64,000 nucleotides of DNA. It comes from Octopus vulgaris (taxonomy: Eukaryota). Positions 16,697-47,432 of the stretch are shown piece after piece. The stretch covers positions 4,712,001 through 4,776,000 of the forward strand of contig OX597837.1 in NCBI GenBank assembly GCA_951406725.2. The letters are read 5' to 3'. Both the position numbers and the translations under genes were made by a program. The notes beneath the pieces were generated by a model. That model had not been told where the DNA came from, ran no database searches, and worked only from the letters and a program-made list of their open reading frames with translations. Positions within the stretch are counted from its first letter, which is position 1. Every line of letters starts with the position of its first letter.

Positions 16697-17323
16697 GGGG
16701 GCGAGCTGGCGGTGAGTACGCCGGGCGAACTGCGTAGTTGTATTTCGTCTGCCGTTATGTTCTGAGTTCAAATTCCGCCGAGGTCGACTTTGCCTTTCAT
16801 CTTTTCGGGGTCGATAAATTAAGTATCAGTTACGCACAGGGGTCGATGTATTCGACTAAATCCGTTTGTCTGTCCTTGTTTGTCCCTTCTATGTTTAGCC
16901 CCTTGTGGGCAATAGAGAAATAAGAAACGTTAGCACACCGGGCGAAATGCGTAGCCGTATTTCGTCTGCCGCTACGTTCTGTGTTCAAATTCCGCAGAGG
17001 TCGACTTTGCCTTTCATCCTTCCGGGGTCGATTAAATAAGTACCAGTTACGCACTGGAGTCGATGTAATCGACTTAATCCGTTTGTCTGTCCTTGTTTGT
17101 CCCCCGCTGCGTTTAGCCCCTTGTGGATAGTAAAGAAATAGGTATTTCGTCTGTCGTTACGTTCCGAGATCAAATTCCGCCGCGATCCAATTTGCCTTTC
17201 ATCCTTTCGGGGCATATAAACTAAGTACCAGTTACGCACTGGGGTCGATGTAATCGACTTTATCCGTTTGTCTGTCCTTGTTTGTTCCCTCTGTGTTTAG
17301 CCCCTTTTGGGTAGTAAAGAAAT
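16697..17323 (+). mobile_element. SINE family B, three head-to-tail units
   Basis: Body repeats three times with junctions near 16923 and 17140. Confidence 0.82.
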
Positions 17324-20446: not shown

Positions 20447-20500
<54 letters not shown>

Positions 20501-20747
20501 TCACAATCAAGGAACGGCCATAATAGGCCATTCACCCACTAGAAATAACAGCCAAAAGCTTTAACCGCAAAATAACATTAATTCCGTAAACCAGGAGAAA
20601 ATTGAAAAACTTTTACCCTGTAATTTCTTAGACGATGCACCGTTTCATCTACCGTTTAATGGTAAGACGATTTGAAAATTTTAGGTCAGATATTGCCGAG
20701 GTAGCAAGAGGAATGCCTCGTGAAAAATATCTGTTCTGACTTGGCTA

Positions 20748-20852
20748 TTTCTTACTGATGAGTCTAAGGGCCTATGGTGGATTGGCTTGATTTAATTTAA
20801 TCAGGTTAGTTTACCATTAAACGGTAGATGAAACGGTGCATCGTCTAAGAAA
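20748..20852 (+). ncRNA. Type I hammerhead ribozyme, canonical core (491-nt repeat, copy 1)
   Basis: Stem I TTTCTTA (20748-54)/TAAGAAA (20846-52); CTGATGA (20755-61); stem II GTCTA/TAGAT closing a long loop; GAAA (20830-33); near-palindromic stem III ACGGTGCATCGT; GUC site with predicted cut after 20845. Confidence 0.88.
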
Positions 20853-21238
20853 TTACAGGGTAAAAGTTTTTCAATTTTCTCCTGGTTTACGGAATTAATG
20901 TTATTTTGCGGTTAAAGCTTTTGGCTGTTATTTCTAGTGGGTGAATGGCCTATTATGGCCGTTCCTTGATTGTGATGTTGAACGTAAAAATGGTTTATGA
21001 CTATTTAATTTTTTCCTACTAGGCCGCTGGTGGCAAAAGAATTCTACAAAATTTTTTTTGCCACCCTATATTGATTAATTATGAATTTTCTGGTTAGTTC
21101 CGTAATGGAATCGGTGGCTTATATTTATTTGCTGCCGATAAATTTGGCGCGAGTGCGACGATTTGAAAATTTTAGGTCAGATATTGCCGAGGTAGCAAGA
21201 GGAATGCCTCGTGAAAAATATCTGTTCCGACTTGGCTA

Positions 21239-21343
21239 TTTCTTACTGATGAGTCTAAGGGCCTATGGTGGATTGGCTTGATTTAATTTAATCAGGTTAG
21301 TTTACCATTAAACGGTAGATGAAACGGTGCATCGTCTAAGAAA
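21239..21343 (+). ncRNA. Type I hammerhead ribozyme, canonical core (491-nt repeat, copy 2)
   Basis: Same motif exactly 491 nt downstream of copy 1; predicted cut after 21336. Confidence 0.88.
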
Positions 21344-21565
21344 TTACAGGGTAAAAGTTTTTCAATTTTCTCCTGGTTTACGGAATTAATGTTATTTTGC
21401 GGTTAAAGCTTTTGGCTGTTATTTCTAGTGGGTGAATGGCCTACTATGGCCGTTCCTTGATTGTGATGTTGAACGTAAAAATGGTTTATGACTATTTAAT
21501 TTTTTCCTACTAGGCCGCTGGTGGCAAAAGAATTCTACAAAATTTTTTTTGCCACCCTATATTGA

Positions 21566-21627
<62 letters not shown>

Positions 21628-25791: not shown

Positions 25792-26168
25792 CACTATTTC
25801 AACTGTTACGGCCTCACTGTCTCTGGTAGTAGACAACCGTTGCTAAATTTTCTGCTTCCAAATGTATAAAGTGCCGTATTCTTACAAAAAAAACCTCGTA
25901 TGTAGTGTCAGGGTCACATTTCTCTAAAAAACTATGACTGAGTGTGTTAAAAGTTTTATAGCCTCTCAATTAAATTAATGATCGTCGCCAGATTGAACCA
26001 CTCCCGTAGGAACCTATTAGCGTTGTTTCGTATTCTCTTCAATCTTGTTAATGACATTCACCGGATTTTAATAGGTTATAACCCACTCCCATAGCCATTC
26101 ATCCATACATGCATATATACATATATATACATACATTACATATATATATGCATATTCATGGATATACG

Positions 26169-26204
<36 letters not shown>

Positions 26205-26547
26205 TGTGGTTGCTTCGGAGCTATTTTTAGCACTAGAGTTATCCACATAGTGGATAACTCTCTAATAATTTATGTATAAATTTGTATTTCCTCCGTAGTT
26301 TTTTGTGCTAAGCCACTTGGTGTTAAATTGACGGTATTATTAAATTAATATCGATTTTTCACCCTCATTTATAATTTTATAAATTTAACTACGCGGCAGT
26401 CAATATTTTATTTGATGCGGCATACGTTTCCAATGGAGTCTAGGCATGCTTTTGGCGCGGAATTTGAGACATAACTAAAAATGTAATTGGTTGGACCGCT
26501 CGTGTTTTTGACGCCCGAATCGATCTAATTAATTGCATTTCTGACAA

Positions 26548-26623
26548 ACTCTACCGAAGATTTATAGATGCAAGTGTAAGTAAAACTACATATTGCATTA
26601 GTAATGAAACAATTGTATAGAGT
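26548..26623 (+). ncRNA. Type I hammerhead ribozyme, U4C core variant (493-nt repeat, copy 1)
   Basis: Stem I ACTCTA/TAGAGT; CCGAAGA (26554-60); stem II TTA..ATGCAA/TTGCAT..TAA; GAAA (26606-09); palindromic stem III ACAATTGT; GUA site with predicted cut after 26617. Confidence 0.75.
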
Positions 26624-27040
26624 CAATCTATTTTATTCGTTGTATTTCACTTTCCTTCAGTTAAATGTGTGTTGATTCTAGTTGGAAACGGATCTTCTGT
26701 GGTTGCTTCGGAGCTATTTTTAGCACTAGAGTTATCCACATAGTGGATAACTCTCTAATAATTTATGTATAAATTTGTATTTCCTCCGTAGTTTTTTGTG
26801 CTAAGCCACTTGGTGTTAAATTGACGGTATTATTAAATTAATATCGATTTTTCACCCTCATTTATAATTTTATAAATTTAACTACGCGGCAGTCAATATT
26901 TTATTTGATGCGGCATACGTTTCCAATGGAGTCTAGGCATGCTTTTGGCGCGGAATTTGAGACATAACTAAAAATGTAATTGGTTGGACCGCTCGTGTTT
27001 TTGACGCCCGAATCGATCTAATTAATTGCATTTCTGACAA

Positions 27041-27116
27041 ACTCTACCGAAGATTTATAGATGCAAGTGTAAGTAAAACTACATATTGCATTAGTAATGA
27101 AACAATTGTATAGAGT
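27041..27116 (+). ncRNA. Type I hammerhead ribozyme, U4C core variant (493-nt repeat, copy 2)
   Basis: Same motif 493 nt downstream; predicted cut after 27110. Confidence 0.75.
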
Positions 27117-27705
27117 CAATCTATTTTATTCGTTGTATTTCACTTTCCTTCAGTTAAATGTGTGTTGATTCTAGTTGGAAACGGATCTTCTGTGGTTGCT
27201 TCGGAGCTATTTTTAGCACTAGAGTTATCCACATAGTGGATAACTCTCTAATAATTTATATATATATATATATATATATATGAATATGTATAACATATAT
27301 ATATATGCATATACATATATATGTATGTATATATATATATATGTATATACATATATATATATATACACATATATTCATGTGAGTGAGTGCTTATATATAT
27401 ATAGACATAGGCATAGATATATATATATACATATATATACACATATCTATATACATATAAATATACATACATATATATATATACCAATAAATCTGTATAT
27501 ATTTATATACATACACATATATATGTATGTATACACACATATATTTTGGTAACACCTATGTATTTACTACGTAACCAAGGGATCTACACACTCATAAATA
27601 CATACACACACACCACACGCACCCATACACACGCACCTAGATATACATTTATATATAAGTATTTAAATACATAGATACATATAATACATGTAGATACACC
27701 TATAC

Positions 27706-27763
<58 letters not shown>

Positions 27764-27784
27764 ATAGATATAATTATATATATA

Positions 27785-27817
<33 letters not shown>

Positions 27818-28603
27818 ATAATTATAATAGATATAATTATATATATAATTATAATATATAATAGAGAGACAGAGGTATGACGAAGAAGACCGCTAGAGAG
27901 AAATGAGAAAATGGGAAGATAGTGTGGGCTGACGAAAAGGTATTCTAGTAGACAGACCTACTCAAGTTTATTTCTTTTAACATTTCTGAGAGCGTTTGTC
28001 TATCCGAAAGTGAAAGTGAATGACAAACGTTACTTCCAGCGATCAAGATTTCCGGTTGACTTAATATACTACGAAGCAATTACATAACTTAAAAACAGTC
28101 TCCTGTGTTTTGGAAGTAATGTACTATAGACTTTATACTAGCTTCTGAACTAATCAAACGAAATATTTTTAACGATGCTTGGATTTAAGTTGTCGGCGTG
28201 TTTAGTGTAGGATATACAGCTTCACGGATGAGAAGTAATGCAGGACATTTTGTGTTATAACATTTTATGTGATGTAACTGGTGAACGAAGCACCAGTTAC
28301 ATCTGGAGTGGCTGTGTGGTAAGTAGCTTGCTAACCAACCACATGGTTCCGGGTTCAGTCCCACTGCGTGGCACCTTGGGCAAGTGTCTTCTGCTATAGC
28401 CTCGGGCCGACCAATGCCTTGTGAGTGGATTTGGTAGACGGAAACTGAAAGAAGCCCGTCGTATATATGTATATATGTATATGTGTGTGCGTGTATGTTT
28501 GTGTGTCTGTGTTTGTCCCCCTTGACAACCAATGCTGGTGTGTATAATATAAACATGTGAATTTGATTCAAATATCTATGCGACAGAAACTTATGGTCAT
28601 TTC

Positions 28604-29018: not shown

Positions 29019-29396
29019 CATTTATTTATTTATCTCGCCCGTCATCCGAGAAACATAAATATTTCTGAAGAGCTGGAGAAACATACTTGTCATGGGTATC
29101 GTCGAATATAATTTTCAGTACAGAATTTATCAACACCATTTAGAAATTAAAATTGCCCAGAGCATATCAGTAAAATATGATTATGTTATATTAGTGAACG
29201 ATGAAAGAAATGCTAAACAACAAATATTTTCGAAGCATAAAATAAATTATGAATTTAAAAATTATAAGCTCCAGGCCAAGACAATAGCAAATACGTCAAA
29301 TAGCCCATGGGAACGCAACAATAAACCTTCCGCAATCCTGAAGCCAATGTTAATCCCTAGTGCAAAGCAACACCAGCAATTCTCAATCTTAACACT

Positions 29397-38597: not shown

Positions 38598-38640
<43 letters not shown>

Positions 38641-38738
38641 GTAAATTAATATGTTACAATTATTCAATAGCGAAGATAAAACTCTGAGTAATTTCCCTTT
38701 ATATAACGGTATCTTTTCATAGCGTTTTTCAGATGGCC

Positions 38739-38801
38739 AGATAACCGAAGAGATGGTGTTGTGGATTTCCACTTCGGCATCCGAAACTCAGAGTTTTATC
38801 T
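38739..38801 (+). ncRNA. Type I hammerhead, U4C variant
   Basis: AGATAA CCGAAGA GATG..CATC c GAAA CTCAGAG TT TTATCT; 6-bp stem I and near-palindromic stem III. Confidence 0.65.
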
Positions 38802-40346: not shown

Positions 40347-40767
40347 CTTTTTACTACCCACACGGGGCTAAACACAGAGGGGACAAACAAAGACAGACAA
40401 ACGGATTAAGTTGATTACATCGACCCCAGTGCTTAACTGGTACTTAATTTATCGACCCCGAATGGATGAAAGGCAATGTCGACCTCGGCGGAATTTGACC
40501 TCAGAACGTAGCGGCAGACGAAACACCGTTAAGCATTTCGCCCGACATACTAACATTTCTTTATTGCCCACAAGGGGCTAAACATAGAGGGGACAAACAA
40601 GGATAGACAGACGGATTAAGTCGATTACATGGAACCCAGTGCGTAACTGGTACTTATTTAATCAACCCCGAAAGGATGAAAGGCCAAGTCGACCTCGGCG
40701 GAATTTGAACTCAGAACGTAGCGACAGACGAAATACCGCTAGGAATTTCGCCCGGCGTTTTAACGTT
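40347..40767 (-). mobile_element. SINE family B dimer
   Basis: Two units joined near 40555. Confidence 0.8.
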
Positions 40768-47021: not shown

Positions 47022-47432
47022 GGCGAGCTGGCAGAAACGTTAGCACGCCAGGCGAAATGCATAGCCGTATTTCGTCTGTCGTTAAGTTCCGAGTTCAAAT
47101 TCCGCCGAGGTCGACTTTGCCTTTCATCCTTTCGGGGTCGATAAATTAAGTACCAGTTACGTACTGGGGTCGATGTAATCGACTTAATCCGTGTGTCTGT
47201 CTTTGTTTGTCCCCTCTGTGTTTAGACCCTTGTGGGTAGTAAAGAAATAGGTATTTCACCCGTCGTTACGTTCCTAGTTCAAATTCCGCCGAGGTCGACT
47301 TTGCCTTTCATCATTTCGGGGTCGATAAATTAAGTACCAGTTACGCACAGGGGTCGATGTAATCGACTTAATCTGTGTGTCTGTCCTTGTTTGTCCCCTC
47401 TGTGTTTAGCCCCTTGTGGGTAGTAAAGAAAA
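47022..47432 (+). mobile_element. SINE family B dimer
   Basis: Two units joined near 47250. Confidence 0.8.

Follow-up and report, generated by a model that had tools for sequence, protein, structure and literature searches.

In the genome of Octopus vulgaris, a short array of 493-nt tandem units carries hammerhead motifs with C instead of U at core position 4 (U4C). What kind of element is this array, and from which template was it copied? We analyzed the locus within a 64,000-nt stretch of contig OX597837.1 (the window), together with its relatives in the genome. The array represents a single insertion of a non-LTR retrozyme family that is young, dispersed and non-coding and has a derived core variant. 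Our best reading, to which we give a probability of roughly 0.65, is that the retrozyme was copied by a Penelope-type reverse transcriptase (RT)-endonuclease from a unit-length, probably circular RNA of a predicted slow-cutting U4C ribozyme. The retrozyme class is already known and U4C was previously known from a viroid; the derived C4, the within-family selection test and the recurrence count are what is added here. In our literature search, neither this family nor a retroelement with U4C came up in any paper; supplements, such as the hammerhead lists of PMC8557442, may contain such cases.

Architecture of the array

The array comprises 2.14 units of 493 nt. Comparison of 26205-26766 with the sequence 493 bases further on gives zero mismatches over 562 comparable bases, and TRF reports a period of 493 with 2.2 copies at 99%. 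These results bear out a sequence-only reading of the locus, which had described about 2.1 identical units and two hammerheads with predicted cuts after 26617 and 27110; the locus thus contains exactly one cut-to-cut monomer. Its features are as follows.

26205..27259, + strand: retrozyme insertion, 2.14 × 493 nt; main arm, which stops at fixed end A
26193..26204, - strand: probable inverted second arm, 12 nt, short, with end-B sequence running into (TA)n
26548..26623, + strand: type I hammerhead 1, with C4 at 26555, a long stem II that has U-U at its base, a palindromic stem III and a predicted cut after 26617
27041..27116, + strand: type I hammerhead 2, 493 nt downstream, with C4 at 27048 and a predicted cut after 27110
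26618..27110, + strand: complete cut-to-cut monomer, predicted circular RNA
26235..26261, + strand: 12-bp hairpin, copy 1
26728..26754, + strand: 12-bp hairpin, copy 2
27221..27259, + strand: 12-bp hairpin, copy 3 (27221-27247), then fixed 3' end A, about +146 to +152 from the cut
26308-26380, + strand: tail motif, first copy
26801..26873, + strand: tail motif (GCCAC..GGTG hairpin ..CACCCT), with fixed 3' end B at about +253, near 26870
26113..26196: (TA)n-rich left flank, presumed target
27257..27860: (TA)n-rich right flank, presumed target
20499..21571: 491-nt relative with canonical U4 and two arms, end A on the minus arm and end B on the plus arm

As read from the sequence, each tandem unit carries one type I hammerhead. 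In the first, stem I pairs ACTCTA (26548-26553) with TAGAGT (26618-26623), and the core CCGAAGA (26554-26560) is followed by a 45-nt stem II, GAAA (26606-26609) and the palindromic stem III, ACAATTGT. The canonical CUGANGA core is absent, C4 being found in 125 of 126 covered units, and the expectation that a strict CUGA search would miss this motif proved correct. Neither hammerhead reaches the Rfam gathering score in the 64-kb window or E ≤ 10 in 26200-27270. Rfam also overlooks the canonical hammerhead of the 491-nt family, and its failure on both hammerheads is likely due to the long stem II. Since searches that demand CUGA and Rfam both overlook such motifs, hammerheads in such genomes are undercounted. 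A weak CTGAAGA..GAAA match that lacks stem II, at 29059-29172, is probably due to chance.

The 12-bp hairpin, present three times, has a z score of -5.07. The array holds no open frame of 100 codons and the 493-nt unit no RT or GIY-YIG ORF; mapping of the ends over family loci revealed no LTR-type termini. Penelope fragments near a few family loci are, where read, separate insertions. Elsewhere in the window, tandem pairs of 184-217-nt SINE-like repeats lie at 16721-17323, 40350-40754 and 47067-47431.

A dispersed family with a derived C4 core

The 493-nt unit is dispersed across the 2.8-Gb genome (179 matches from the 40 scored of 2,148 candidates). A hammerhead pattern with core position 4 left free has 143 exact matches and its reversed control none, which shows that the motif is not a chance occurrence; position 4 is C in 99 of the 100 matches listed. 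The single U4 copy is a CpG-type change, found in 1 of 65 loci at a rate like that of other CpGs, and is therefore uninformative on selection. The 143 matches, together with a comparison of 16 relatives, establish the dispersed family with conserved stems I and III that had been proposed. Substitutions private to one family locus amount to 0.24% per site, and divergence is 0.5% within arms, 0.75% between arms and 2.6% between loci. The 74 loci analyzed combine 40 (the best-scored 40 of 2,148 candidates), 25 from the core-pattern list and 9 chosen by post-cut or tail sequence independently of the core, a sample biased toward young, long copies.

The nearest family (497 nt, 89% identical) has U4, as do all further relatives; the 493-nt family is counted as a non-LTR retrozyme variant despite C4 because these nearest relatives have U4. 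In a midpoint-rooted tree of 45 rows, made without a clade test, all eight rows with C4 make up a single clade (100/100) inside the U4 families. Patterns that require U4 (109 and 198 matches) supplied most of the U4 rows; hammerheads from the core-blind tail-motif sample are likewise U4. Because the C4 family nests among U4 relatives, C4 in the 493-nt family is, on sequence comparison, a derived state.

The 493-nt unit had been judged unlike the 491-nt family and the common size of about 490 nt constrained or inherited. Overall alignment of the two units is indeed poor (z 2.4), but they have the tail motif and the layout in common. The tail motif, with 6,089 genome matches and none in the control, occupies the same place relative to the hammerhead and the ends in both families. 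Unit lengths of tail-motif families are 490-494, 497, 523-530 and 534 nt, so the two-base likeness reflects common descent within this range rather than a strict limit: inheritance stands and tight constraint does not. Stem I and N17 of the 493-nt family (26548-26623) equal those of a distant 525-nt family (L158, L271), the remainder being more like the 497-nt family; recombination, convergence or a retained state could account for this. At another locus (L171, G000:C3:48820500-48830400), two inverted arms of the 525-nt family enclose an LTR-type retroelement whose frame has 886 codons.

C4 recurs elsewhere in the genome. A second CCGAAGA hammerhead, at 38739-38801 of the window, belongs to a pattern with 4,137 matches, C4 being present in 100 of the 100 matches listed; at L343 (G000:C1:57207500-57217400), this second U4C hammerhead is part of a 2.58-kb tandem unit that contains a Penelope-like frame of 717 codons, which has a weak GIY-YIG match (E 0.018) and 23% identity to the RT core of a 781-codon Penelope frame (E 2e-5). 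Whole units of the 2.58-kb element form tandem arrays on both arms, and its size and (TA)n context presumably recall the Hydra clade. A third hammerhead family, with core CCGACGA (L105:200, L337-L342), has C4 in 40 of 44 matches. The derived state was established for the 493-nt family, and the other two C4 hammerheads are counted by the presence of C4. The recurrence of C4 in unrelated elements may mean that slower cutting is favored.

The identical core change is known from a viroid hammerhead, where U4C lowers in vitro activity considerably (PMC3088659, citing the original work), which counts against our best reading, and where function in vivo is kept (PMC3088659). The same source describes U10.1-U11.1 as tolerated in hammerheads. 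What differs here from the viroid case, as that source presents it, is that a whole genomic family has C4 fixed, and that at least two further, unrelated hammerheads of this genome carry it.

Insertions have two fixed 3' ends and scattered 5' ends

We classified 116 arms in the 74 loci: 56 end at A, 51 at B and 9 elsewhere (107/116 at A or B). End A lies just after the 12-bp hairpin, about +146-152 from the cut, and end B after CACCCT, at about +253, roughly 105 nt away. The 5' ends of arms are scattered round the whole unit, and the family displays both variable 5' truncation and an inverted 5' arm. A search for circularly permuted copies, as had been suggested, thus gives a split outcome, with permuted 5' ends but 3' ends fixed at two sites. 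Likewise, the array had been described as starting and ending around the hairpin: its end at 27259 is the fixed family end, whereas its start is one of many scattered 5' truncations.

Among 38 head-to-head pairs, 34 are A+B, one is B+B and three include an unclassed end (p 1e-9 on 34/35). The 491-nt family obeys the same layout in 40 loci, with A at +131, B at +237, 24 of 28 pairs A+B and none A+A or B+B. Junction reading places most arms in (TA)n, a sequence in which target duplications are unreadable. In the window, the reverse complement of the left junction (26193-26204) corresponds to the unit at end B, and longer end-B arms occur at other loci. Because its right end is A and its left junction reads as 12 nt of inverted end B, the window copy probably fits the A+B rule with a vestigial 12-nt second arm. 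The sequence-only reading had overlooked both this short inverted remnant and the two-end rule.

The 5' ends are not enriched at the predicted cut (3 of 116 within 4 nt, 1.9 expected), which counts against our best reading; the 491-nt family has 4 of 69 there (1.1 expected, p 0.03), two of the four from one locus. At one locus of the 491-nt family (L324, G000:C14:56932500-56936800), the predicted cut is the exact starting point of both arms, which may be a trace of cleaved RNA. In five further loci (L009, L028, L311, L315 and L316), arm 5' ends lie about 9-13 nt upstream of the cut, on the 5' side of stem III, and the inverted arm of the second U4C element (window 38640-38700) also stops about 9-13 nt upstream of it. 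These stops possibly reflect RT stalling at a folded, uncut junction, in a sample part of which was chosen for ends there.

Probable Penelope-type copying

The genome has intact 781-codon RT+GIY-YIG Penelope frames, and two of its RT+GIY-YIG Penelope families end in (TA)n with two ends each. All three inverted pairs of the 781-codon family follow the two-end rule, and 11 of 13 resolved inverted pairs of the second family combine a short and a long end, 36 nt apart, in agreement with the Penelope tail described in PMC8557442. With a Penelope protein in vitro, extension occurs on both strands of the target, from two internal start sites in the RNA, which yields a tail (PMC11167929). Features described for Penelope-like elements in PMC8557442, PMC11167929 and PMC4209133 and common to the 493-nt family include 5' truncation, partial tandems, an inverted 5'-truncated arm, a tail at one end only, (TA)n targeting and a hammerhead near the 3' end. 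These parallels make it very likely that Penelope-type proteins move the 493-nt family.

The family also differs from these elements as described there: it has no ORF, its hammerhead is full-size rather than minimal, no pLTR homology was found among 30 GIY-YIG loci, and its tail of about 105 nt exceeds the 30-40 nt given in PMC8557442. The tail length counts against our best reading, as do two sequence comparisons. The 493-nt unit has no sequence match in those 30 GIY-YIG loci, a subset of the genome's families that includes the 781-codon family; and end-motif comparisons with the second Penelope family reached p 0.02 in 1 of 40, and not for the 493-nt unit. This second family (L172:3320-4715, G000:C12:50055319-50056714) has 3,137 candidates and, by eye, a minimal hammerhead-like motif with U3-A8 in its 3' part; 14 of its longer stretches hold no intact frame. 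A 14-nt resemblance of its long end to retrozyme end B (CAATTTTCTCACC) failed a shuffle test.

Metazoan non-LTR retrozymes, as described in PMC7229834 and bioRxiv 10.64898/2026.07.22.740005, have the same non-coding tandem units with one type I hammerhead each, low GC, no LTR features, a highly paired predicted monomer and a short palindromic stem III. As in this genome, they are reported to coexist with Penelope elements, and the U-U at the base of stem II has a counterpart in axolotl HHR_Amex2. Set against these descriptions, the 493-nt family has a fixed U4C core and a 45-nt stem II; its 493-nt unit, here a predicted circle, exceeds the invertebrate circles of about 170-400 nt and falls within the 51-972 nt of the preprint. 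Two fixed 3' ends and two-armed insertions are not part of the retrozyme descriptions in the sections consulted of PMC7229834 and the preprint. Both sources propose, without showing it, that Penelope-type elements mobilize retrozymes, and PMC8557442 calls the role of the hammerhead in Penelope-type elements unclear.

Circular template or uncut multimer

The predicted circular fold of the monomer 26618-27110 has -130.5 kcal/mol, with 65% of bases paired (z -5.0 versus 40 shuffles). Over the 16 relatives the hammerhead stems covary, with 91.8% of cells paired, far above slid controls; 10 of 24 stem pairs changed on both sides, and stem III is invariant. Within the family, variants present in at least three loci keep predicted pairing in 15 cases and break it in one, and private variants keep it in 30 and break it in 58 (p 8e-6); restricted to transitions, the kept:broken counts are 15:0 for spread and 30:23 for private variants (p 8e-4). 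At one stem II pair, 36 loci have U-A and 29 have C-G, and none mixes the two. The predicted RNA fold is under selection after C4 fixation; catalysis is a separate question. Two results count against our best reading: the local hammerhead fold does not exceed shuffled sequences in stability (z -1.45), and the depletion of private changes at core, stem I and stem III positions (3 versus 6.7 expected) is not significant (p 0.09).

Of the 116 arms, 89 cross the cut site, 33 of them by more than one unit, and the longest measures 3,499 nt; the templates were thus circles or uncut multimers. The sequence-only reading had claimed more than two laps of reverse transcription round a circle, which these crossings and the common haplotypes render plausible, but an uncut multimer leaves identical marks. 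An alternative that we consider possible, if rather unlikely, therefore retains the same Penelope-type copying and holds that the C4 ribozyme is dead or nearly dead, the template being a linear multimer, transcribed through a tandem source array and left uncut. It would account for arms that mostly cross the cut site and never pile up there, and what is selected in the fold could be RT binding instead of catalysis. Hammerhead mutants had no effect on Penelope insertion in vitro, for which cutting was dispensable (PMC11167929), and eight of nine tested Xenopus retrozymes gave no cleavage (bioRxiv 10.64898/2026.07.22.740005); both findings count against our best reading and suggest that cutting may be unnecessary. 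A dead ribozyme agrees less well with the 31 core, stem I and stem III positions, where no variant is found in at least three loci (0/30, but p 0.15), and with the compensatory stem II change, which arose within the C4 family.

Haplotypes bear on the same choice. In most loci one haplotype runs across all units and both arms, which favors one template molecule per insertion. Against the uncut multimer, 11 locus-private variants are present in all covering units, some on both arms. Many haplotypes have spread, that of the window being common to loci on two other chromosomes, and the multimer would need many source arrays. One locus (L184, G000:C17:37328500-37335000) departs from this pattern: its 7-unit arm shifts stepwise between two haplotypes, and both arms begin with the same one. 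This mosaic suggests a switch of template from one RNA to another, or else a mix in the assembly; not every insertion would then come from one molecule, which counts against our best reading.

The stretch was found in 19 of 24 runs, none of them on record as RNA. In run X1, which is only guessed to be RNA, one 523-nt contig (493+30), identical to the window unit and at a depth of 135.5, closes on itself, as would a DNA dimer; an end-A junction contig has a depth of 5.0. Run X9 yields a 523-nt contig with 11 differences. The single clean haplotype in X1 is odd for DNA of a polymorphic family, a hint that we do not count as evidence. C-to-U editing at C4 received no support, as another letter at this position occurs in none of four runs. 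Overall, we judge it probable from the sequences that the 493-nt family is copied from circular RNA.

Other routes to a tandem array

Local tandem duplication, or satellite growth by unequal crossing-over after insertion of a monomer, has been proposed for vertebrate retrozymes (bioRxiv 10.64898/2026.07.22.740005). Here it is very unlikely, given arrays that are short, dispersed and non-integer with fixed ends on both arms, and identical haplotypes on different chromosomes. Helitron-like elements have a fixed 5' end, a single hairpin-defined 3' end and AT-rich targets. A rolling-circle DNA element of this kind, with the terminal hairpin as its 3' signal and an incidental hammerhead, would explain the perfect hairpin about 10 nt before end A, the AT-rich targets and the tandem arrays. 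The combination of a fixed 5' end and a single hairpin-defined 3' end is absent in the 116 arms, which have two alternative 3' ends and head-to-head A+B pairs, and the hammerhead stems covary; this explanation is largely refuted and less probable still. An assembly artefact or single-locus sequence, which identical units with microsatellite flanks could have suggested, is practically dismissed by copies at dozens of loci, each with its own junctions, and by the unit's presence in contigs of four runs from four studies, one possibly the assembly's source.

A proposed cycle and its implications

Returning to the likely copying of a predicted slow-cutting retrozyme by a Penelope-type protein, we propose a cycle that would start with transcription of a copy bearing two hammerheads. 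These would cut, probably as a dimer via the palindromic stem III, and the 493-nt monomer would be closed to a circle. The RT+GIY-YIG protein would then nick both (TA)n strands and prime cDNA internally at two sites on one and the same RNA, the first (A) behind the 12-bp hairpin and the second (B) behind CACCCT. Each cDNA would be of variable length, often several laps, and the two would be joined head to head, one of them being very short in the window copy. In this cycle, C4 would reduce cutting enough to preserve whole templates without abolishing it.

We tentatively suggest that U4C is a repeatedly selected throttle: three unrelated hammerheads might have fixed C4 since slower or protein-dependent cutting would keep circular or multimeric RNA whole for a two-site Penelope RT, an idea that we consider possible but rather unlikely. 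If it is true, C4 and U4 sister families would form a natural matched pair for the role of hammerhead cutting in the Penelope cycle. The 493-nt family offers a short substrate in which two start sites are mapped, and its U4 sister is 89% identical, which permits direct comparison of cutting rate, circle level and priming.
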